Source: Dehalococcoidia bacterium (GTDB lineage: Bacteria > Chloroflexota > Dehalococcoidia > UBA2979). From it: a stretch of 64,000 nucleotides of DNA. A program made the translations under genes and the position numbers. Shown piece by piece: positions 597-39,087 of the stretch (position 1 is its first letter; every line of letters begins with the position of its first letter). The stretch lies in NCBI GenBank assembly GCA_965219085.1, contig OZ244720.1:1344001-1408000 (forward strand). The letters run 5' to 3'. The notes beneath the pieces are model-generated. The model saw only the letters and a program-made list of their open reading frames with translations, had not been told where the DNA came from and did no database searches.

Positions 597-1054
597 ACTG
601 GCAGGCGTTCGCGGCGCGGGCGCCCGACCTCGCGGCCGTCGCAAAGCGGCTGCCCGGCGACCCGCGGGTGGTGCTGGTCGGGACCGTGCGCCGCGACGGG
701 ACGACGCGGATCAGCCCCGTCGAGCCGTTCTGGCTGGGCGACGAGCTCTACCTCGGCATGACGCCCGGCTCGATGAAGGCACTCGACCTGCTGCGCGACC
801 CGCGCTGCCTCGTGCACAACACCGTCACCGACCATGAAGGACGCGCGGGCGAGGTGAAGCTGCGCGGTCGTGCCGTCGTGGTCGACGACGAAGCGTCGAT
901 CGAGGCGTACTGCGTCGCGCTGGAGGCCGCGTACGGCTGGCGGCCAGAAGGACCGTTCCCCCTCTTCGCCATCGACATCGAGGACATGGCGTGGGTGCAT
1001 CGAGAGAGCGGCGAGCAGGAAGTCGATCGCTGGGTGGCCGGTCCCGCGGCGTGA
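593..1054 (+). CDS. Pyridoxamine 5'-phosphate oxidase-like (split-barrel flavin/F420-binding) protein
   Basis: GTG overlaps the MFS stop (GTGA); motifs GTVRRDGTTRISPVE and KALDLLRDPRC. Confidence 0.8.
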   Translation: MNWQAFAARAPDLAAVAKRLPGDPRVVLVGTVRRDGTTRISPVEPFWLGDELYLGMTPGSMKALDLLRDPRCLVHNTVTDHEGRAGEVKLRGRAVVVDDEASIEAYCVALEAAYGWRPEGPFPLFAIDIEDMAWVHRESGEQEVDRWVAGPAA

Positions 1055-1076
1055 CCACGAGTCGCGGGAGACCTCG

Positions 1077-1409
1077 CTAGGGATCGAGGCCGAGCTGGCG
1101 ACGCCGGGCGTGCTGATGGGCGTGCTGATGGGCGTGCTCGGCAGCGTCGCGGAAGGTCTCACCGCAGTCGGCGCAGACCTCGACGGAGCGGAAGCCGCCG
1201 GCCGGCGCCACACCGGCGATGGACCAGAGCCGCCACTCGTCGAGCGCGCGCTGCTGGGGATCGTCGTCCGTGTCACCGGGCCCGAGTTGCCAGCGGTCCT
1301 TGCGCTTGGTCTCGATGGTCGTGGTGCCGCGCGGGTCGGACGCGTCGCGGTGCTCACAATGCCAGTAGCAGCCCTCGGGGCAGTAGTTGGCGGCGAGCGC
1401 GTCGGTCAT
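1077..1409 (-). CDS. Small Cys/His-rich hypothetical protein, possibly metal-binding
   Basis: 110 aa ORF with CPEGC..C and CADC..F..HAHQHAHQH; fills the gap between neighbouring genes. Confidence 0.55.
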   Translation of the reverse strand: MTDALAANYCPEGCYWHCEHRDASDPRGTTTIETKRKDRWQLGPGDTDDDPQQRALDEWRLWSIAGVAPAGGFRSVEVCADCGETFRDAAEHAHQHAHQHARRRQLGLDP

Positions 1410-1471
1410 GGCGCGGATGATACGCGGTTCGCGCCGGCAGCGTGGCTGCCTCGGACGTAGCGGCGAGGCGG

Positions 1472-2131
1472 CTACGCCCACTCGCGCGGGCGAGTGAAGG
1501 AGCCGCGGGCGTCCGTCAGCGTCTCCGGGAACTGGCACGCCGCGAGAAGCCTGCGACGCTTCACACTGTTTGTGATGCGCCGATCGAACGTAGCGACATC
1601 CGCGAGTTCCTTGCTCGGACGCCGTGACCGACGACTCCCGCTGCCGTTCAGGATTGGCAGCACCACACCGACGGTGAAGTCAAACCGCGCGCGAACCTGA
1701 CGAATGGGCTCAACAAGATCGGAATCGTTGGACACGACAAGCGCGGCGTCGCAGTCCTGATCGAATGCGTCCAGCAGCAGATGCGTGGCGAGGTTGACGT
1801 CGGTTCCCTTCTCCTCGGTCTTGAGCACGGGGACCCTGCCGCGTCCGTCGGCCCGGACCATCATCGTTCGTGACACCAGGAAGTGGCCGTAGTGAATCGA
1901 AAGATCGGGAAGGGTCCGGAGGGCCCGGATGTACGCCGCCTGTCGGTCCGGCGCCGTTGGATCCCCCGGCAACGGGCGAACCCTTGCCGTGAAGTAACGG
2001 ACACGGCGCACTTCGTCGCGGGGCCCTAGCAACTCGTGGGCTAAGCGCCGGATATCCAACCAGCGGTACGGCTGGCTGCGGAGCGCCCCGTAGTAGAGGT
2101 TGAAGCCATCGACATAGACATTGAAGCGCAT
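1472..2131 (-). CDS. NYN (LabA/DUF88, PIN-like) domain ribonuclease
   Basis: VYVDGFNLYY, EEKGTDVNLA and VVSNDSDL acidic motifs. Confidence 0.9.
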   Translation of the reverse strand: MRFNVYVDGFNLYYGALRSQPYRWLDIRRLAHELLGPRDEVRRVRYFTARVRPLPGDPTAPDRQAAYIRALRTLPDLSIHYGHFLVSRTMMVRADGRGRVPVLKTEEKGTDVNLATHLLLDAFDQDCDAALVVSNDSDLVEPIRQVRARFDFTVGVVLPILNGSGSRRSRRPSKELADVATFDRRITNSVKRRRLLAACQFPETLTDARGSFTRPREWA

Positions 2132-2239
2132 GCGGGAGCCCAATACCCGCAAGGCCCCCTGACGGGGGCCTCACTACCCAAACGGACGTACCGAGTGGGG
2201 GGGTACAGCTATATTCCAGTGTGCGCGCACCGTTGTCAA
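2132..2239 (-). promoter_or_regulatory. Putative promoter and structured leader of the NYN gene
   Basis: TTGACA on the minus strand at 2234-2239; perfect 8-bp hairpin at 2152-2171. Confidence 0.5.
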
Positions 2240-2275
2240 CACACAAAACGGATTATCAGTATCCGGATGGCGCCC

Positions 2276-4210
2276 CTACACCAACGTCACCGGCGCGCCC
2301 ACGCGCTCGGCGACGGCGACCGTCCGGTCGTGCTTCGTCGTGTCGCCGGAGCGGGCCATCGAGACCAACTCGGAGATCTTGTGGCGGCACTCGCCGTTGA
2401 TGTCCTGGTGGCCGCACACGTTGCACGGGTCGCGCTTGCAGTCGAGCGTGATCTCCTCGTTCAGCGTGCGCATCCACTCGCCGCGCAGGAACGCCTTCGT
2501 CGTCGCCGAGTCGACGTGGTCCCACGGCAGTGGCTCCCACAGGTCGCGATCGCGGTGCGCGTAGTCAGCGGGGTCGAGGTCGTGCGTCGCGAAGGCCCGC
2601 TCCCAGATCGACCAGTCGTGGTGCTCCGACCACGCGTCGAACTTCGCGCCCAGCCGCCACGCCGTCTCGATCACGTCGGCGACGCGGCGGTCGCCGCGCG
2701 ACAGCACGGCCTCGAGCAGCGACTTCTCCGGGTCCTCCCAGCTGAACTGCACGCCCGCGCGCTTGCAGCCCTCGCGCAGGATGCGGTGGCGGCGACGCAG
2801 CGTGCCGGCGTCGCACTGCGCGAGCCACTGGTACGGGGTGTGTGCCTTCGGGATGAAGTTCGAGGTCGAGACGCGCACCCGCGCGCGGCCGCCCTGGTGG
2901 CGCTTGCCGATCGCCTTCACCTCGGAGGCGATGCGGACAATCTCCTCGATGTCGAAGTCGGTCTCGGTCGGCTGGCCGACCATGAAGTACATCTTGATGC
3001 TCGTCCAGCCGTTGCCGAAGGCGTGCTCGGCGGCGTTGAGCAGGTCCTCCTCGGTGACGAGCTTGTTGATCGTGTTGCGCAGCCGCTGCGAGCCCGCCTC
3101 CGGGGCGAGCGTGAGCGTGTGCTTTTTGCCGCGCGCCACCGCGTCCGCGACCTCGACCGAGAACGAGTCGACGCGCGTCGAGGGCAGCCCGATGCGCAGA
3201 CCGCGGTCGCCGTAGGCGTCCATCAGCGCGTGCACCATCGGCACGATGTCGCGGTGGTCGGTGGTCGAAAGCGACATCAGCGAGAGCTCGTGGTAGCCGG
3301 TGTTGTCGAGCAGCTCGCCCGCAGCCGCGACGATCTCCTCGACGGAGCGTTCGCGGGTCGGGCGGTAGATCATACCGGCCTGGCAGAAGCGGCAGCCCTG
3401 CGTGCAGCCGCGCTGGATCTCGATCACCGCGCGGTCGTGGACCACCTCCATGAACGGCACGATCGGCTTCGTCAGCGGCGGCGGCAGCACCTGCACCACG
3501 CGGCGCGTGATGCGGTCCGGCGCGGCCGCGTCGACCGCCCGCGTCCCCGCGAGCGCGCCGTCGGCGTCGTAGCTCGGCTCGTACAGCGAGGGTACGTAGA
3601 CGCCGTCGAGGGCGGCGAGGGCGCGATGCAGCTCCTGCCGCGAGCCGCGGCCGGCGCGCTTCCAGTCGCGCACGAAGTCGACGAGCTCGTCGATGAGCTC
3701 CTCGCCCTCGCCGAGCGCGAAGGCGTCGAAGAACGGCGCCATCGGCTCCGGCTCGAGCGCGGCCGAGCCGCCGCCGACGACGATCGGGGCGTCGTCTGCG
3801 CGGTCGGCGCTGTGGATGGGGATGCCGCCGAGTTCGAGCAGGTTGAGGACGTTGGTGAAGCACACCTCGTACGACAGCGAGATGCCGAGCACGTCGAACT
3901 CGTGGAGCGCGTGCCGCGTCTCCAGCGAGCGCAGCGGCTCGTCGTGCTCGCGCAGCAGGTCCTCGAAGTCCGTCCACGGCGAGAAGACACGCTCGGCGAG
4001 CGCGTCCTCGCGGCGGTTGACGATGTCGTAGAGGATGCCGAGCCCGAGGTTGGACATGCCGAGGTCGTAGAGGTCCGGGTAGGCAAGCGCGACTCGCACC
4101 TCGGGCGCCCCGGGCCCGTCCCAGTCCTTGGCGATCGAGTGCAGCTCGCCACCGGCGTAGCGCGCAGGTCGCTGGACGCGGTCGATGAGCTCGTCGTAGG
4201 TGGTGGGCAT
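2276..4210 (-). CDS. B12-binding radical SAM protein (TIGR03960 family-like)
   Basis: CTQGCRFC motif; N-terminal RPARYAGGE and YPDLYDLGMSNLG; C-terminal Cys cluster. Confidence 0.9.
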   Translation of the reverse strand: MPTTYDELIDRVQRPARYAGGELHSIAKDWDGPGAPEVRVALAYPDLYDLGMSNLGLGILYDIVNRREDALAERVFSPWTDFEDLLREHDEPLRSLETRHALHEFDVLGISLSYEVCFTNVLNLLELGGIPIHSADRADDAPIVVGGGSAALEPEPMAPFFDAFALGEGEELIDELVDFVRDWKRAGRGSRQELHRALAALDGVYVPSLYEPSYDADGALAGTRAVDAAAPDRITRRVVQVLPPPLTKPIVPFMEVVHDRAVIEIQRGCTQGCRFCQAGMIYRPTRERSVEEIVAAAGELLDNTGYHELSLMSLSTTDHRDIVPMVHALMDAYGDRGLRIGLPSTRVDSFSVEVADAVARGKKHTLTLAPEAGSQRLRNTINKLVTEEDLLNAAEHAFGNGWTSIKMYFMVGQPTETDFDIEEIVRIASEVKAIGKRHQGGRARVRVSTSNFIPKAHTPYQWLAQCDAGTLRRRHRILREGCKRAGVQFSWEDPEKSLLEAVLSRGDRRVADVIETAWRLGAKFDAWSEHHDWSIWERAFATHDLDPADYAHRDRDLWEPLPWDHVDSATTKAFLRGEWMRTLNEEITLDCKRDPCNVCGHQDINGECRHKISELVSMARSGDTTKHDRTVAVAERVGAPVTLV

Positions 4211-34343: not shown

Positions 34344-36014
34344 GTGGCGATTGAACACGTGACGGCCCCGGGCGAGGACGTCCTCGCCGACCTGCGCGAA
34401 ATCGAGCTGCTCTTCGAGACGCTCCCGGTGCGCGTCGCCGAAGCGCTCAGCGAGTCGCCCTCGGACGACCTGCTCGAGGTCGTGCTCGACCTCGGCCGCC
34501 AGCCGACGGCGCGCCACGCCGACCGCGAGATCGTGCTCAGCGAGGACGAGGTGACCGCGCAGGACCTCGACCACGTGGTGGCGGCGATCTCGGAGTTCGC
34601 CGACGACAACCGCGCCGGCATCCCGCGCACGCTCCACCGCATCTCCGCGATCCGTAACCGCCGAGGCCGCATCGTGGGGCTCACGTGCCGGGTCGGCCGC
34701 AGCGTGACCGGCTCCGCCGGAGCCATCCGCGACCTGTTCGAGGCGGGGCGCAGCGTCCTGCTCCTGGGCGCGCCGGGCGTCGGCAAGACGACGATGCTGC
34801 GCGAGGCGGCGCGCGTACTCGCCGACGACCTCAACCGGCGCGTGGTCATCGTCGACACGTCGAACGAGATCGGCGGCGACGGCGACATCCCGCACCACGC
34901 CGTGGGCCGTGCCCGCCGCATGCAGGTGCCGCACCCCGAGCTGCAGCACCAGCTCATGATCGAGGCGGTCGAGAACCACATGCCCGAGGTGATCGTGATC
35001 GACGAGATCGGCACTGCCCTCGAGGCGACGGCAGCGCGCACCATCGCCGAGCGCGGCGTGCAGCTGATCGGCACGGCGCACGGCAACACGCTGCACAACC
35101 TCATGCAGAACCCGACGCTCTCCGACCTCATCGGCGGGATCGAGTCGGTCACCCTCGGCGACGAGGAGGCGCGGCGGCGCGGCACGCAGAAAACGGTGCT
35201 CGAACGCCGCGCGCCGCCGACGTTCGAGTCGCTCGTCGAGATCCAGTCGTTCGACCGCGTGGCGGTGCACGAGGACATCGGCGGCACCGTCGACAAGCTG
35301 CTGCGCGGCTTCGACGCCGAGGCCGAGGTGCGCACGATCAGCCCCGGCGGCGAGGTATCGGCAGCCACACGCGTGCCGGTGCCCTCGGGCCCCTCGGAGG
35401 CGGCTGCGGCTCTGCGGGAGCGCGAGTCGATCATGGAACCGCTGCCGCCCGCTCCCGGCGGCCCGCTGCGTCGCATCCTCCCGTTCGGCGTGAGCCGGTC
35501 GCGGCTGGAGCAGGCGATCCACGAGACGCGCTCGGACGCCGAGGTGGTCGATCGCGTCGGCGACGCAGACGCGGTGATGACGCTGCGTCCGTACTACCGG
35601 CGTCGCAGCGGCCCGCTGCGGGAAGCGGCCTCGCGCGGCATCCCCGTCTACGTGCTGCGCAACAACACGATCAGCCAGATGGAGCAGTCGCTGATGCGCA
35701 TGCGCGGCGACGGCAACGAGCCCGACCCCACCACCTCGGCGCTGCGAGAGGCCGAGGACGCCATCGCGGCGGTCAACCTGCGCGGCGAGAGCAGCATCGA
35801 GCTGTCACCGCAGAACGCGTACATCCGCCGGCTCCAGCACGAGCTGGCCTCCCGCCACGGCGCGACCTCGGTCTCGCGCGGGCGCGAGCCGTATCGCCGC
35901 GTGATGCTCACGGCAGGTGACGGCGAGCTGCGCGGTGCCCGTGCGGTGCCCGCCCTCGGCGACGCACTCGAGGCTCTACCAGGAGGCGGGGATACCCCGC
36001 CGGGCTACGAGTAG
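34344..36014 (+). CDS. Ycf45/SpoIIIAA-like AAA ATPase with R3H domain
   Basis: GAPGVGKTT, DTSNEIGGDG, IDEIG, GTAHG; RRLQH R3H motif. Confidence 0.9.
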   Translation: MAIEHVTAPGEDVLADLREIELLFETLPVRVAEALSESPSDDLLEVVLDLGRQPTARHADREIVLSEDEVTAQDLDHVVAAISEFADDNRAGIPRTLHRISAIRNRRGRIVGLTCRVGRSVTGSAGAIRDLFEAGRSVLLLGAPGVGKTTMLREAARVLADDLNRRVVIVDTSNEIGGDGDIPHHAVGRARRMQVPHPELQHQLMIEAVENHMPEVIVIDEIGTALEATAARTIAERGVQLIGTAHGNTLHNLMQNPTLSDLIGGIESVTLGDEEARRRGTQKTVLERRAPPTFESLVEIQSFDRVAVHEDIGGTVDKLLRGFDAEAEVRTISPGGEVSAATRVPVPSGPSEAAAALRERESIMEPLPPAPGGPLRRILPFGVSRSRLEQAIHETRSDAEVVDRVGDADAVMTLRPYYRRRSGPLREAASRGIPVYVLRNNTISQMEQSLMRMRGDGNEPDPTTSALREAEDAIAAVNLRGESSIELSPQNAYIRRLQHELASRHGATSVSRGREPYRRVMLTAGDGELRGARAVPALGDALEALPGGGDTPPGYE

Positions 36015-36019
36015 CGTCG

Positions 36020-36646
36020 GTGGCCGCCTGCGACGGCTGCTTCGTCACCATCGAGGGCGGCGAAGGCGCCGGAAAGTCGACCCTCCTCGACGCGCTCGCC
36101 GAGCGCGCCCGCACCGAGGGTTTCGAGGTGGTGACGTGCCGCGAGCCCGGCGGCACCGCGCTCGGTGAGCGGCTCCGCGCCGCGCTCCTCGGCAGCGACG
36201 GACCCGCGCCCGACGCGCGCGCCGAACTGCTCGTCTTCGCGGCTGCGCGCGCGCAGCTCGTAGCCGAGGTGATCCGCCCCGCCCTGAAGCGCGGCGCGCT
36301 CGTGCTCTGCGACCGCTACGCCGACTCGACGCTCGCGTACCAGCACCACGGCCGCGAGCTGCCTCGTGACACCGTCGACGCCGTGAACGCGGCTGCGACC
36401 GGCGGCCTCACGCCAGACCTCACGTTGCTCCTCGACCTGCCTCCGGCCGAGGGGCTGCGCCGTACGGGCCGCGCCGGCGACTACATGGAGCGCGAGGAGC
36501 TGGCGTTCCACGAGCGTGTGCGCGCGGGCTACGAGGTGCTGGCGCGCACGGAGCCAGAGCGCTGGCGCGTCCTCGATGCGAGTCGGGCGGCTGCTGCGCT
36601 AGCCGACGAGGCGTGGGGTGAGGTCGGGCGCGTGACTCAAAGCTGA
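36020..36646 (+). CDS. tmk: Thymidylate kinase
   Basis: IEGGEGAGKST, REPGG, DRYADS..AYQ. Confidence 0.95.
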   Translation: MAACDGCFVTIEGGEGAGKSTLLDALAERARTEGFEVVTCREPGGTALGERLRAALLGSDGPAPDARAELLVFAAARAQLVAEVIRPALKRGALVLCDRYADSTLAYQHHGRELPRDTVDAVNAAATGGLTPDLTLLLDLPPAEGLRRTGRAGDYMEREELAFHERVRAGYEVLARTEPERWRVLDASRAAAALADEAWGEVGRVTQS

Positions 36647-36836
36647 GGCTGCCTCACGGCAGCCGCGCGCCCTCTCGCCGAAGCGCACAGGGGGTGTCCC
36701 CGCGATCGTACGCCCCGGAACTCGCCCGACGCCACAGTCGTCCCTCGTCTGCAACAACCGGCGTCGTGTACCGCTGCCGCGAGACTTGTGCGGCACGTCA
36801 CAACCGACCCGCAGCCGCTCCCACGGAGGGTCGTCG

Positions 36837-37355
36837 ATGAGCGAGCCGGAACTGCCGGAGGGGTGGCCGCAGGCGTTCGATGAGGAGGCGCGTGACTACC
36901 TGTACATGGAGGCCAGCACGCGCCTGCGCGAAGTCATCGAATTCGGAAACCAACAACTCGATAAGGGGCTCGCCCTGCTCAGGCTTTCCCTTCTGGTGAT
37001 CGCTGCCGGAGGGATCTTCGGAGACCTGTACCTCGGATTCAGCTTGCTGGGCGTACTCTCAGGACTAGCCGTTGGCGCAGCCCTCGTGGTGGGCGGAATG
37101 GGGCTTCTTCTGCTCTATCCAAGGGACTGGGAAACGGGGGCTAATGTCGACTGGCTCGCCCGCTGGCGAGGGGCGGACACCCGAGCGATGAGAGATTCAG
37201 TGCTCGAAACCATGGTCAGAGGGTTCCGGACCAACCGCAGGATCACTGAACAGCGCGGGAGAATCCTCGTGTTGCTCGTCCCTGCAGTGATGGTTCAGAC
37301 CGTGCTCGTGGTGCTCGTGCAGATCGTGTCGGTACTCGAAGTGTCGGCCAGCTAG
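36837..37355 (+). CDS. 3-TM membrane protein, Pycsar-effector/SLATT-like topology
   Basis: GGAGG RBS; helix ending QQLDKG, then two TM, loop, N..R, third TM; atypical codon usage. Confidence 0.6.
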   Translation: MSEPELPEGWPQAFDEEARDYLYMEASTRLREVIEFGNQQLDKGLALLRLSLLVIAAGGIFGDLYLGFSLLGVLSGLAVGAALVVGGMGLLLLYPRDWETGANVDWLARWRGADTRAMRDSVLETMVRGFRTNRRITEQRGRILVLLVPAVMVQTVLVVLVQIVSVLEVSAS

Positions 37356-37492
37356 CGGCCCCACTTCTCTATTCGGATGGGGGATCCGGGCGGGCGAGGG
37401 GGCGAAGAAGGCCTCGCGGCACCAGCTGACTCACCCCCGGTCTTGGCTCGCCGCGATGGCCCGACGCAGCTTCCGTGATTCGCCCTACCCAC
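37352..37492 (-). CDS. Pro-rich microprotein 2 (46 aa, ends PSSPPRPPGSPIRIEKWGR)
   Basis: GAGGT RBS then GTG; C-terminus paralogous to 37536-37673 with synonymous divergence. Confidence 0.65.
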   Translation of the reverse strand: MGRANHGSCVGPSRRAKTGGESAGAARPSSPPRPPGSPIRIEKWGR

Positions 37493-37535
37493 GGAAGAAC
37501 CTCGCATCCGCGCACGCCAGCACATGTAACCGCAG

Positions 37536-37673
37536 TTAGCGGCCCCACTTCTCGATGGTGCTCGGCGAGCCCGGCGGCCGTGGCGGATCCGACGGCTTGC
37601 CGTCGTGCTTCGGCGTATCGCCAGCCGCGCCACCTTGTGGCGCGGACCCTGCGTCGGCCTTGCCTCCGGCCAT
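37536..37673 (-). CDS. Pro-rich microprotein 1 (45 aa, ends PSDPPRPPGSPSTIEKWGR)
   Basis: GAAGGG RBS then ATG just after the thiolase stop; paralog downstream. Confidence 0.7.
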   Translation of the reverse strand: MAGGKADAGSAPQGGAAGDTPKHDGKPSDPPRPPGSPSTIEKWGR

Positions 37674-37687
37674 CGGTTGGCCCTTCG

Positions 37688-38863
37688 CTAGTTGATGCGC
37701 TCGAAGATCGAGGCGATGCCCTGGCCGCCGCCGATGCACAGCGACACCATCGCGTACCGACCGTCAATGCGCTCGAGCTCGTACATGGCCTTCACCGTGA
37801 GGATCGTGCCGCTCGCGCCCACCGGGTGACCGAGCGCGATCGCGCCGCCGTTCGGGTTGGTCTTCTCCACGGGCAGGTCGAGCGCCGCGCTGCACGCCGC
37901 CGACACCGAGGCGAACGCCTCGTTCAGCTCGATCGTGTCCATGTCGCCCACGGTCAGACCGGCCTTCTCGAGCGCGCTCTGCATCGCCGGGATGGGCCCG
38001 GAGCCCATGATCCGCGGCTCGACGCCCGCCTGCGCGCGAGCGACGAGGCGGAACTTCGGCGTCATGCCCAGCTCGGCGGCCTTGCTCGCCGTGGTCACGA
38101 CCACCGCGGCTGCGCCGTCGTTGATGCCCGAGGAGTTCCCGGCCGTCACCTGGCCGTCCGGCTTGAAGGCCGGGCGCAGCCGCCCGAGCGACTCCATGTC
38201 CGTCCGGCGTGGGTGCTCGTCGGTGTCGAACGTCGCGGTCCTGCGGCCCTGGCGGACCTCCATCGGGAGGATCTGGTCCTTGAAGTACCCCGCCTCGATA
38301 GCCGCGAGCGCGCGCTCCTGGGAGCGCACCGAAACCTCGTCCTGGGTCTCACGCGAGACCTCGAACTGCTCGGCGAGGTTCTCGGCCGTGACGCCCATGT
38401 GACAGGACTCGTACGGGTCCGAGATGAGGTGCAGCAGGTTGTCCTCAAGCGCGTCGTGGCCGAGGCGGTAACCCGCGCGGCCCTTGCGCAGCAGGTAGGG
38501 CTGCATCGTCATGTTCTCGGCGCCGCCGGCGACGATGATGTCGGCGTCGCCGGTCTGCAGCCAGCGGGCGGCGCTGTTGATCGCCTCGAGGCCCGAGCCG
38601 CAGATGCGGTTCACCGTGTAGGCCGCGGTGCCGACCGGCAGGCCGGCCTTCAGCGTGGCGACGCGGGCGATGTAGCCGTCCTCGGCCACCTGCCCGACGC
38701 AACCGAGGATGACCTGGTCGATCTGTTCGCCCTCAAGGCCGGCGCGTTCTACCGACTCGCGGATGACAGCCGCCCCGAGGTCGGAGGCAGGCGTCTGGCT
38801 GAACGAGCCGTTCATCGTGCCGATCGCGGTGCGCACGCCGCTGAGCAGGACAATGTCTTCCAT
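37688..38863 (-). CDS. Acetyl-CoA acyltransferase (thiolase)
   Basis: NRICGSG, NEAF, GGAIALGHP, CIGGGQG. Confidence 0.95.
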   Translation of the reverse strand: MEDIVLLSGVRTAIGTMNGSFSQTPASDLGAAVIRESVERAGLEGEQIDQVILGCVGQVAEDGYIARVATLKAGLPVGTAAYTVNRICGSGLEAINSAARWLQTGDADIIVAGGAENMTMQPYLLRKGRAGYRLGHDALEDNLLHLISDPYESCHMGVTAENLAEQFEVSRETQDEVSVRSQERALAAIEAGYFKDQILPMEVRQGRRTATFDTDEHPRRTDMESLGRLRPAFKPDGQVTAGNSSGINDGAAAVVVTTASKAAELGMTPKFRLVARAQAGVEPRIMGSGPIPAMQSALEKAGLTVGDMDTIELNEAFASVSAACSAALDLPVEKTNPNGGAIALGHPVGASGTILTVKAMYELERIDGRYAMVSLCIGGGQGIASIFERIN

Positions 38864-39087
38864 CGGAAGCCCCCTACGGTCGGTACTCGCTGGCCGTTCG
38901 GCCACCGCCGGTACCCGTATTCTGTGTATACAAGTGTACGGCGCGTGGCGCTAGCGCGGCATGTGGACATCGCCCCAGACGGGCGAATTTCGAGGAATTT
39001 CCGCATCGTGCGGGCGCCTCGGGACACCCTGCGTGCATGCGGGCGCCTCTCATTGCCCGCCCCCGGACGCGCCCATAAACTCGATCC

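Follow-up and report, generated by a model that had tools for sequence, protein, structure and literature searches.

What is very probably a genuine and coupled two-gene module was found in a 64,000-nucleotide stretch (the window) of the genome of a Dehalococcoidia bacterium of the GTDB lineage UBA2979 (contig OZ244720.1, positions 1,344,001 to 1,408,000). Between tmk and a thiolase gene, a gene for a 172-aa protein with three predicted transmembrane (TM) segments, here called the TM protein, is met from the opposite strand by two tandem small open reading frames (ORFs), A and B, which encode proline-rich peptides with a common C-terminal tail. Sequence comparisons make it likely that the TM protein is homologous to PycTM, the pore-forming membrane effector of Pycsar, a pyrimidine-cyclase system that protects against phages by abortive infection. 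The reading that unites the observations, i.e., a PycTM-like membrane effector that is inhibited by its cognate peptide in a system of the toxin-antitoxin (TA) or abortive-infection type, is put forward tentatively, as possible but not yet probable.

The coupling of the two genes is apparent in the loci of close relatives. The TM protein has 21 relatives in a collection of 5.8 billion proteins and occurs in 10 of the 18 further genomes of its genus. All 16 loci with a close homologue (43-100% identity; the window, L021-L030, L051, L055, which is the same place as L069, L056, L060 and L061) contain one to three convergent proline-rich small ORFs ending -3 to +66 nt from the stop codon of the TM gene. 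Homologues of the TM protein are thus accompanied by such ORFs, whereas their absence would have refuted the reading given in the initial annotation of this DNA. In three of the 16 (the window, L025 and L051) the two stop codons overlap by 4 nt (distance -3), and second peptide copies lie ~150-715 nt from the TM stop. A strict form of the tail motif is matched in 14 of the 16 loci. Tails of near kin end in PPRPPGSPxTIE(K/R)WGR and those of farther kin in APRPPGKPSTI(L/Q)KKGIG, with one, two or three units per ORF or several ORFs (the core is repeated one to three times inside one ORF in L025, L027 and L028). The tail in L061 is a variant of PRPKG type that ends in ...PPRPKGSPGTIIKRGVG, and the small ORF of L055/L069 is a diverged two-repeat variant.

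The pair is found in at least four different gene neighbourhoods, and its two adjacent genes are co-inherited across these contexts; the different neighbourhoods have no third gene in common, and what moves is the two-gene pair alone. The tmk/thiolase synteny of the window is seen in five loci. In L025-L028 the pair is located directly downstream of a gene for a ~976-1024-aa protein with MmeI methyltransferase, helicase-spacer and TRD domains, and in L029 it lies between genes for acyl-CoA dehydrogenase and dapF. No SMODS, SLOG or TIR partner was seen in the neighbourhoods examined. An IS-type DDE transposase gene is present upstream in L025. Within the syntenic set, the TM protein is 58-79% identical compared to 91-95% for the proteins of the neighbouring genes, indicating that the TM protein evolves fast. 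Wherever the TM gene is intact in the 16 close loci, a peptide accompanies it. The converse does not hold, for peptides are found in the absence of an intact TM gene in L024 (G018:C2, 7987-8435 and 8501-8638), where the TM gene is split in two frames (residues 1-40 and 40-150) and the single adjoining peptide is intact, and in L134, which is described below.

The tails of A and B are identical in 16 of 19 residues, their 19 codons contain ten synonymous and three non-synonymous differences, and the stop codons are TAA and TAG, respectively; at the DNA level the two copies form a 54-nt direct repeat with 76% identity. The initial annotation had reported these tail and codon differences, together with a ribosome-binding site (RBS) for each small ORF and unrelated N-termini, and all of this is reproduced here. 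The IEKWGR ending directly before a stop codon occurs in only two places of the 3.3-Mb single-contig genome, both of them in this locus, and the reversed pattern, used as a control, occurs nowhere. The N-terminus of peptide A, ahead of the conserved tail, is Gly/Ala/Asp-rich and variable, and the N-terminus of peptide B is related neither to that of A nor to those of the B copies in relatives, conservation being confined to the 19-aa tail. A frameshift was considered as the origin of the odd N-terminus of B and was rejected, as no alignable frame was found. The tail of B has the same residues as the tail of peptide A from L023, from which its codons differ in nine synonymous and no non-synonymous positions. 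Orthologues of peptide A in L022, L023 and L024 have the same MAGGK start preceded by GAGG, and database proteins P0022-P0024 and P0029 are similar to it. Gene callers have picked up the peptide in public records: a member of its 90%-cluster is called "hypothetical protein" in an NCBI metagenome-assembled genome, and its locus tag adjoins that of a fragment of the TM protein.

The synonymous pattern in one genome cannot fix the coding strand because the antisense (plus-strand) frame shares the wobble positions and is nearly as conserved in this genome (GDPGGRGG vs GEPGGRGG). The strand is fixed by the relatives: in all 16 peptide ORFs compared, which come from 11 loci, the sense frame has a start codon and is open, and a Shine-Dalgarno-like sequence (GGAGG, GAGG or AGGAG) is present 6-10 nt upstream of the starts, while each of the five other frames contains at least one stop codon in 6 to 11 of the 16 ORFs. 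Over 21 non-independent tail pairs, codon position 3 accounts for 215 of the 332 base differences, and the differing codons are synonymous in 165 and non-synonymous in 81 cases. As judged from these comparisons, selection acts on the peptide tail and not on the DNA, and the open sense frame and position-3 bias of the relatives bear out what had been proposed from A and B alone. The small ORFs might be suspected of being chance ORFs or a non-coding DNA repeat, given that the genome is G+C-rich, that long spurious ORFs are abundant in it and that the antisense frame is nearly as well conserved there. That only the sense frame stays open, that starts and RBS-like sequences are conserved, that differences concentrate at position 3, that the motif recurs beside TM homologues in unrelated neighbourhoods and that no Rfam family matches at E ≤ 1 in positions 36500-37900 leaves this explanation with practically no credibility.

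There is no family for either peptide in Pfam, NCBIfam or PADLOC-DB v2 (0 at E ≤ 1 in the latter) and each ORF has its own start and RBS; thus, the motif is not the 3' remnant of a longer known gene, which the initial annotation had listed among the findings that would refute its reading. The N-terminal part of the peptide is of low complexity and variable, and the conserved part comprises the last 15-19 residues up to the free C-terminus, with a proline-rich stretch (PRPPG, RPLP or PPPG), a short hydrophobic stretch, basic residues and then Gly/Ser. No signal peptide or hydrophobic segment is visible in the translations. The predicted peptide is small, hydrophilic and cytoplasmic, and probably disordered. 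A variable N-terminus followed by a conserved C-terminal "core" that is repeated one to three times per ORF (L025, L027, L028, P0028-P0055) is also what one would expect of an exported peptide, be it a bacteriocin, a signal or a RiPP-like multi-core precursor, with the 3-TM protein as its immunity protein or exporter. The pair is fast-evolving and polymorphic, and small multi-TM proteins are typical immunity proteins. However, the neighbourhoods have no modifying enzyme, leader peptidase or ABC exporter in common, the peptides lack a visible export signal and match no NCBIfam precursor family (nor a Pfam one), and fusions of the tail with DUF2283, a small soluble domain, occur as well, which together make an exported product improbable.

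Since the stops of the TM gene and peptide B overlap and no terminator-like site was found between the genes, the two transcripts should be complementary at their 3' ends. A terminator consensus scan of positions 36500-37900 gave no sites, and so did a promoter scan with a sigma-70-type consensus, which may not suit this phylum. The only RNA run among 22 runs (X9; 0.05 of the sampled words) gave contigs that cover positions 37653-37900 only, i.e., the 3' end of the thiolase gene and 21 nt of peptide A. The overlapping or nearly touching stops of most loci, and the lack of a terminator-like site, could mean that the small ORF is a cis-acting device that controls an antisense transcript over the 3' end of the TM gene, for instance through ribosome stalling at PPG, and that the peptide itself is functionless. 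PPG and PPP are indeed stalling motifs that depend on elongation factor P (EF-P). EF-P-dependent polyproline stalling was rejected as a general reason for the motif because a large subfamily of tails, the RPLP one, has no consecutive prolines. In addition, residues that follow the prolines are conserved through synonymous change to the very C-terminus, second copies are situated at a distance from the TM stop, one peptide copy is an orphan and some tails are fused to other domains, so that such a device is a very improbable explanation.

The wider family was searched in two ways. A profile of 23 sequences, run against 1.84 billion sequences, retrieved 90 cluster representatives at E ≤ 1e-3, of which 53 were at E ≤ 1e-10. 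A profile of 55 diverse members gave matches in 82 of 401 sampled Dehalococcoidia genomes (37 of 223 genera), with up to eight matches per genome in one family of genomes and five in the genome under study. The TM gene is therefore not the orphan that it had been taken for. The matches in the same genome outside the window, at G000:C1:2068237-2068490 (L019/L020/L033), G000:C1:3053262-3053708 (L092) and G000:C1:1616096-1616569 (L093), comprise a short two-frame fragment, a copy interrupted by an in-frame TAG and a distant paralogue that seems to be intact. Neither L092 nor L093 has a clear proline-rich convergent ORF beside it, although L092 has a possible decayed one. Tandem TM genes in L138 (16960-18317) and L140 (3528-5226) each have their own convergent small ORF, and these ORFs share an N-terminal W-K-T-K-W-E-G-like stretch that is not seen in the peptides of the window.

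In 61 further loci (L069, which is also among the 16 close ones, is included), all opposite-strand ORFs that end -40 to +100 nt from the TM stop were considered. Many of these ORFs have a related but diverged tail, such as ...RRPLPRTIHKNGA, ...GRPLPLKLHKRGL, ...PPPPGSPLRVTKRSV, ...QRPPGNAGLWIKKGP, ...ARPPGRPSTWVLKGF and ...KIPPPGPSVKVERGL. A loose proline-rich/basic regular expression is matched in 30 of the 61 loci, or by 30 of 145 ORF tails in this zone vs 40 of 4685 elsewhere in the same loci, an enrichment that is descriptive only, the expression having been composed after the tails had been seen; beside PF18967-positive genes it is matched in 0 of 12 loci and by 0 of 27 tails. The -3 spacing of the stops recurs in 7 of the 30 motif-positive distant loci. 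Clusters of TM proteins at ≥45% identity each carry their own tail variant, i.e., the pair has diversified together.

The TM protein itself has an acidic N-terminal segment with a conserved GWP..F..AR.YLY motif and a helix that closes with QQLDK. These are followed by a TM hairpin, a loop with PRDW, a basic helix (N..R..RG) and the last TM helix, in which Q/T are conserved, the near-invariant columns being taken from the family alignment (A3). The AlphaFold2 (AF2) model (pLDDT 71) is all-helical, with helices at residues 16-58, 70-93, 104-110 and 115-171 that correspond, in this order, to a long N-terminal helix that continues as TM1, to TM2, to a short helix and to a second long helix that continues as TM3. 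According to the positive-inside rule, the N-terminus and the basic loop between TM2 and TM3 are probably cytoplasmic. No family was found for the protein at E ≤ 1 in Pfam or PADLOC-DB v2 (0 families), nor any in NCBIfam; a PHROGs search was uninformative, with best E-values of 0.33 (window protein) and 0.094 (a homologue from L076). A Foldseek search of the model against PDB gave no match at E ≤ 0.001, and a wide VIA-align search returned only generic long-helix bundles with a best Z of 10.8, a Z of ~13 being advised for helical models.

The relationship to PycTM was revealed by more sensitive comparisons. An hhalign comparison of the 55 family members (A5) with 11 PF18967-positive proteins (A6) gave a probability of 95.8% and an E of 6.8e-9 over 148 columns, which is almost the whole TM protein. 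The K preceding TM1, the P-R that follows TM2 and the basic residue ahead of TM3 coincide in this alignment. None of the ten controls, two of them reversed and eight block-shuffled, exceeded 0.8%. The comparison proteins came from Chloroflexota, where 12 of 301 genomes of the phylum had one above the cut-off. In the nearest clusters of the ESM Atlas (score 0.92-0.94), PycTM is assigned to 15-33% of members. Among the 55 members, faint Pfam hits were obtained to PycTM in three (best E 0.018; the Pfam gathering score is 27.2 bits), to SLATT_3 in one (E 0.0021) and to DUF4231 in two (E 0.38). Because the faint Pfam hits, the ESM Atlas neighbours and the profile-profile match with its clean controls converge, the TM protein is, on this evidence, likely to be a distant relative of PycTM that is outside the Pfam family as it is defined. 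The resemblance to PycTM and SLATT proteins had been suggested from topology and now extends beyond it. The SLATT/DUF4231 models give no match for the window protein and only sub-threshold hits among the 55 members.

The absence of a cyclase nearby, which had been pointed out as well, was upheld and extended to the genome. The neighbours of the TM gene are tmk, the two peptide genes and the thiolase gene, with no partner pyrimidine cyclase among them, and no class III cyclase (PF00211) was found in the whole 3.3-Mb genome (92.7% complete), in a search in which control genomes gave matches. As for the PF18967-positive Chloroflexota loci (L034-L045), six were scanned for neighbours and a class III cyclase gene (CHASE2 + Guanylate_cyc) is adjacent in L039 only; the remaining scanned loci adjoin unrelated genes, e.g., those for a WYL regulator, a phosphotriesterase and homocysteine biosynthesis. 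Cyclase-less PycTM-like genes may be common in Chloroflexota.

The peptide tail is not restricted to the small ORFs of TM loci. A profile search of the peptide gave 36 proteins at E ≤ 10, mostly stand-alone ones of 37-79 aa with one to three tail units. The same tail ends the DUF2283-domain proteins P0042 and P0052 (PF10049, E 2e-13 and 2e-12) and the 76-aa proteins P0049 and P0051, whose N-terminal domain has no Pfam assignment; for this reason the tail is, as far as the alignments tell, a portable C-terminal module. A likeness of P0049/P0051 to HicB-type antitoxins was considered and dropped, as Pfam did not confirm it. The accessible text of a paper on DUF2283 (PMC4755241) offers no usable function for the domain. 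A tail-less DUF2283 gene is divergent from the peptide genes in L026. A strict group-2 tail pattern (≤2 mismatches) occurs in the 401 genomes of the class in six places in five genomes, with none for the reversed control; five of the places are TM loci and the sixth is L134 (G016:C14), an orphan 33-aa peptide (~1450-1551, plus strand) with the tail ...PRPPGKPSTIQKEGIG and no TM-family gene within 1.5 kb. A gene for a Uma2 endonuclease (812-1423, minus strand) adjoins the orphan peptide.

The portability of the tail would also suit a docking tag, and the module could be an ordinary, non-toxic membrane complex in which a housekeeping or stress-related 3-TM protein is served by the peptide as an accessory subunit or adaptor, perhaps one that anchors proteins with such a tail, for instance the DUF2283 fusions, at the membrane. 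Small proteins that regulate membrane proteins are numerous in bacteria, no PADLOC family matches, and the tmk/thiolase synteny is stable in five genomes. We consider this unlikely given the patchy distribution of the TM protein in its genus and class, its multiple copies, its pseudogenes, its divergence, which is faster than that of the neighbours, its adjacency to restriction-modification (R-M) genes and its homology to a family of defence effectors. Multiple copies, tandem pairs, fast evolution, decayed copies and R-M adjacency are, by analogy, typical of TA and defence loci, and would fit a module of this kind.

These considerations can be combined into the following scheme. The first gene of the conserved module encodes a predicted small inner-membrane protein, a likely distant relative of PycTM without a cyclase partner. 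The second, of which there are one to three copies or a single ORF with one to three internal repeats, is convergent to it with touching or overlapping stops. The tail of the peptide would bind to the cytoplasmic face of the effector, the candidate site being its acidic, aromatic N-terminal segment (GWP..F..YLY), whose nearly universal Trp, together with F and Y, is a plausible dock for a basic, polyproline-type tail, though this site is speculative. Binding would hold the effector closed, which would make the peptide an antitoxin, and through the obligatory 3' overlap each transcript would also exert antisense control over the other. If the labile peptide were lost, e.g., upon a shut-off of host expression, the effector would be freed, with membrane damage and growth arrest as the outcome. 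An action of the peptide on the TM protein itself, as one protein on another, is, in our opinion, slightly favoured. A complex prediction for the TM protein (A3) and peptide A (alignment A4), made without controls, scored 0.02 and 0.01 against a mark of 0.32 and is counted neither for nor against such an action.

An inhibitory role of the peptide is doubtful enough to be offered as a suggestion, and we prefer it for three reasons. No close locus has an intact effector without a peptide, while peptides outlast the effector (L024 and L134); the tail is found attached to further small domains, in the manner of the neutralising tails of antitoxins; and multi-unit peptides could engage several protomers of an oligomeric pore. 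Alternatively, the peptide may be an activating ligand or trigger that replaces the cyclic pyrimidine (cCMP or cUMP) of Pycsar, the effector staying shut until the peptide has built up or has been set free by another partner in the course of infection or stress. PycTM-type effectors are activated by a ligand and then form membrane-spanning pores, according to a published account (PMC11224242), and as no cyclase was found in the genome, a different ligand would be needed here. Convergent transcription would allow mutually exclusive expression of the two genes, and a preprint (bioRxiv 10.64898/2026.04.06.716658) describes two-gene defence systems whose TM effector is activated by a small protein. 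Against this, small genes with their own RBS, which look constitutive, adjoin every effector copy, and that the peptide is kept where the effector has been lost (L024, L134) suits an antidote better than a trigger; we therefore find a triggering role quite unlikely. A more general proposal is that a peptide micro-ligand has replaced the cyclic nucleotide as the gate of a PycTM-type pore, with the tail as a portable "key", and that the pairs constitute a new class of two-gene conflict modules, widespread and multicopy in Dehalococcoidia, in which each effector lineage has a co-diversified tail; taken in full, this proposal is on the unlikely side.

Several observations weigh against an effector held in check by its peptide. 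In the lineage of the window the pair resides in stable synteny between housekeeping genes, which fits an ordinary membrane complex too. The Pfam model of PycTM (PF18967) misses the TM protein, and a six-frame search of its own genome with this model gave zero matches. TM composition may inflate profile scores, though the controls described above argue otherwise. Protein antitoxins are normally co-transcribed with their toxins, which makes the convergent order unusual. In the wider family, where the enrichment of the tail pattern has only descriptive value, 31 of the 61 distant loci have no match to the regular expression; several of these show evident variants by eye (tails that look related are found in L072, L097, L099, L107/L091, L108, L115 and L117). 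The low-GC cluster L112, L123, L127, L130 and L131 shows no candidate peptide, nor do some singletons, so that the pairing is not universal in the family. A hidden Markov model built from 41 close tails performs weakly on distant ones: among 4857 ORF tails the best E is 0.0037, and convergent adjacent ORFs are at ranks 1, 2, 3, 5, 8 and 10 (E 0.0037 to 2), with an unrelated ORF at rank 4, a result that is suggestive without being decisive. The orphan peptide of L134 is convergent, at 30 nt from stop to stop, to a Schlafen/AlbA_2 gene (1581-2798, minus strand) instead of a TM gene. Finally, toxicity, binding and translation are all predicted from sequence.

The organisation of the locus agrees with the initial annotation: the ORFs and the Pfam-assigned flanks confirm two tandem minus-strand small ORFs and a convergent 3-TM gene between tmk and the thiolase gene, and the CTAG common to the stops of the TM gene and the second small ORF can be read in the sequence. 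The 556-aa protein encoded upstream of tmk (34344-36014, plus strand) combines a SpoIIIAA-like AAA ATPase, a PTPase-like domain (PF25516) and an R3H domain, and is 91-93% identical in relatives of the same genus. In a DNA run (X5), one contig connects position 36925 to position 37537 via 429 different letters where the window has 611. This contig is a strain variant in which the 3' part of the TM gene is divergent and probably one peptide copy fewer is present, since the 182-nt difference in length is close to the 184-nt spacing of the copies.

Features of the module in the window and genes that precede it in related loci (positions without a locus name are those of the window)
Feature	Position	Strand	Basis or remark
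tmk	36020-36646	+	PF02223, E 4.2e-43
Gene for the 172-aa 3-TM protein (PycTM-like)	36837-37355	+	ORF call, homologues, AF2 model
Approximate TM helix 1, residues ~44-62	36966-37022	+	Hydrophobic run in the translation, within model helix 16-58; boundaries inferred
Approximate TM helix 2, residues ~70-93	37044-37115	+	Model helix 70-93; followed by nearly invariant P95-R96-x-W98
Approximate TM helix 3, residues ~143-167	37263-37337	+	Model helix 115-171; conserved Q154, T155, Q162
CTAG, overlapping stops of the TM gene (TAG) and peptide B (TAG)	37352-37355	both	
Peptide gene B, 46 aa from GTG (GAGG 8 nt upstream) or 51 aa from ATG at 37507	37352-37492	-	
Conserved tail of B, PSSPPRPPGSPIRIEKWGR + TAG	37352-37411	-	
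Peptide gene A, 45 aa, ATG start	37536-37673	-	ORF call; orthologues with the same start
Conserved tail of A, PSDPPRPPGSPSTIEKWGR + TAA	37536-37595	-	
Thiolase gene	37688-38905	-	PF00108/PF02803
MmeI-family (type IIL-like) R-M gene preceding the module	L025:4927-7857; L028:3435-6509		Equivalents in L026 and L027
Gene with type ISP C-terminal specificity domain, followed by the module	L030:5958-7439		

PycTM/SLATT-type effectors are the killing arm of nucleotide-signalling phage defence, and the family described here is without a cyclase and is instead paired with a peptide, gene for gene. Should the pore be under the control of the peptide, this would be a new mode of gating for this class of effectors and a new kind of very small antitoxin or ligand, with a minimal motif of ~17 residues, in a compact two-component system of 172 aa and 45 aa. 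The conserved convergent pairing makes it possible to recognise small ORFs that are usually missed by annotation. The defence and TA repertoires of Dehalococcoidia/Tepidiformaceae, known here as metagenome-assembled genomes only, are essentially uncharted. No description of a TM effector paired with a convergent proline-rich peptide was found in the full-text literature, subscription journals and supplements being outside the search, and the putative effector is, by its sequence relationships, a new, divergent branch of the PycTM/SLATT-like kind.

The module can be compared to several known systems, each of which it resembles in part. Its TM protein shares with PycTM (PF18967) a similar size of ~170-200 aa and the order of the parts: the N-terminal helix closes with D/N-K and is followed by a TM hairpin, P-R comes directly behind TM2, and a helical loop and a basic residue precede the last TM helix. 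Unlike Pycsar, it has no PycC or class III cyclase nearby or anywhere found in the genome, and unlike PycTM, its constant partner is the gene of a convergent proline-rich peptide, which none of the 12 PF18967-positive Chloroflexota loci has. Members of the SLATT/DUF4231 superfamily are small, helical 2-TM effector domains of nucleotide-signalling conflict systems with a cytoplasmic N-terminal helix; the TM protein is likewise predicted to be a small helical membrane effector and its family shows faint Pfam hits to them, but these are below the family thresholds and the SMODS/SLOG/TIR partners were not seen in the neighbourhoods examined.

Convergent genes that overlap at their 3' ends are known from the type I TA loci bsrG/SR4 and txpA/RatA of Bacillus subtilis, where a membrane-acting peptide toxin of <60 aa is paired with an RNA antitoxin. 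The present module is similar in that a membrane protein gene has a convergent, 3'-overlapping partner and in being small, multicopy and patchy; it differs in that the membrane protein is ~170 aa long and the partner is conserved as a peptide. Type II antitoxins neutralise their toxins with a disordered C-terminal tail. A short, probably disordered conserved tail that stands alone or on a small folded domain (DUF2283), and a peptide gene that is kept where its partner has decayed (L024), are reminiscent of them, whereas the convergent rather than operonic order, the stand-alone peptides without a DNA-binding domain and the integral membrane nature of the partner are not. The type II PANGU system, as presented in the preprint cited above (bioRxiv 10.64898/2026.04.06.716658), is a two-gene defence system in which a nucleoid-associated protein activates a TM effector. 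The unit of a small soluble partner and a membrane effector is common to both, and the PANGU partner is an activator associated with the nucleoid; no sequence relationship between the two was seen, none having been tested for.

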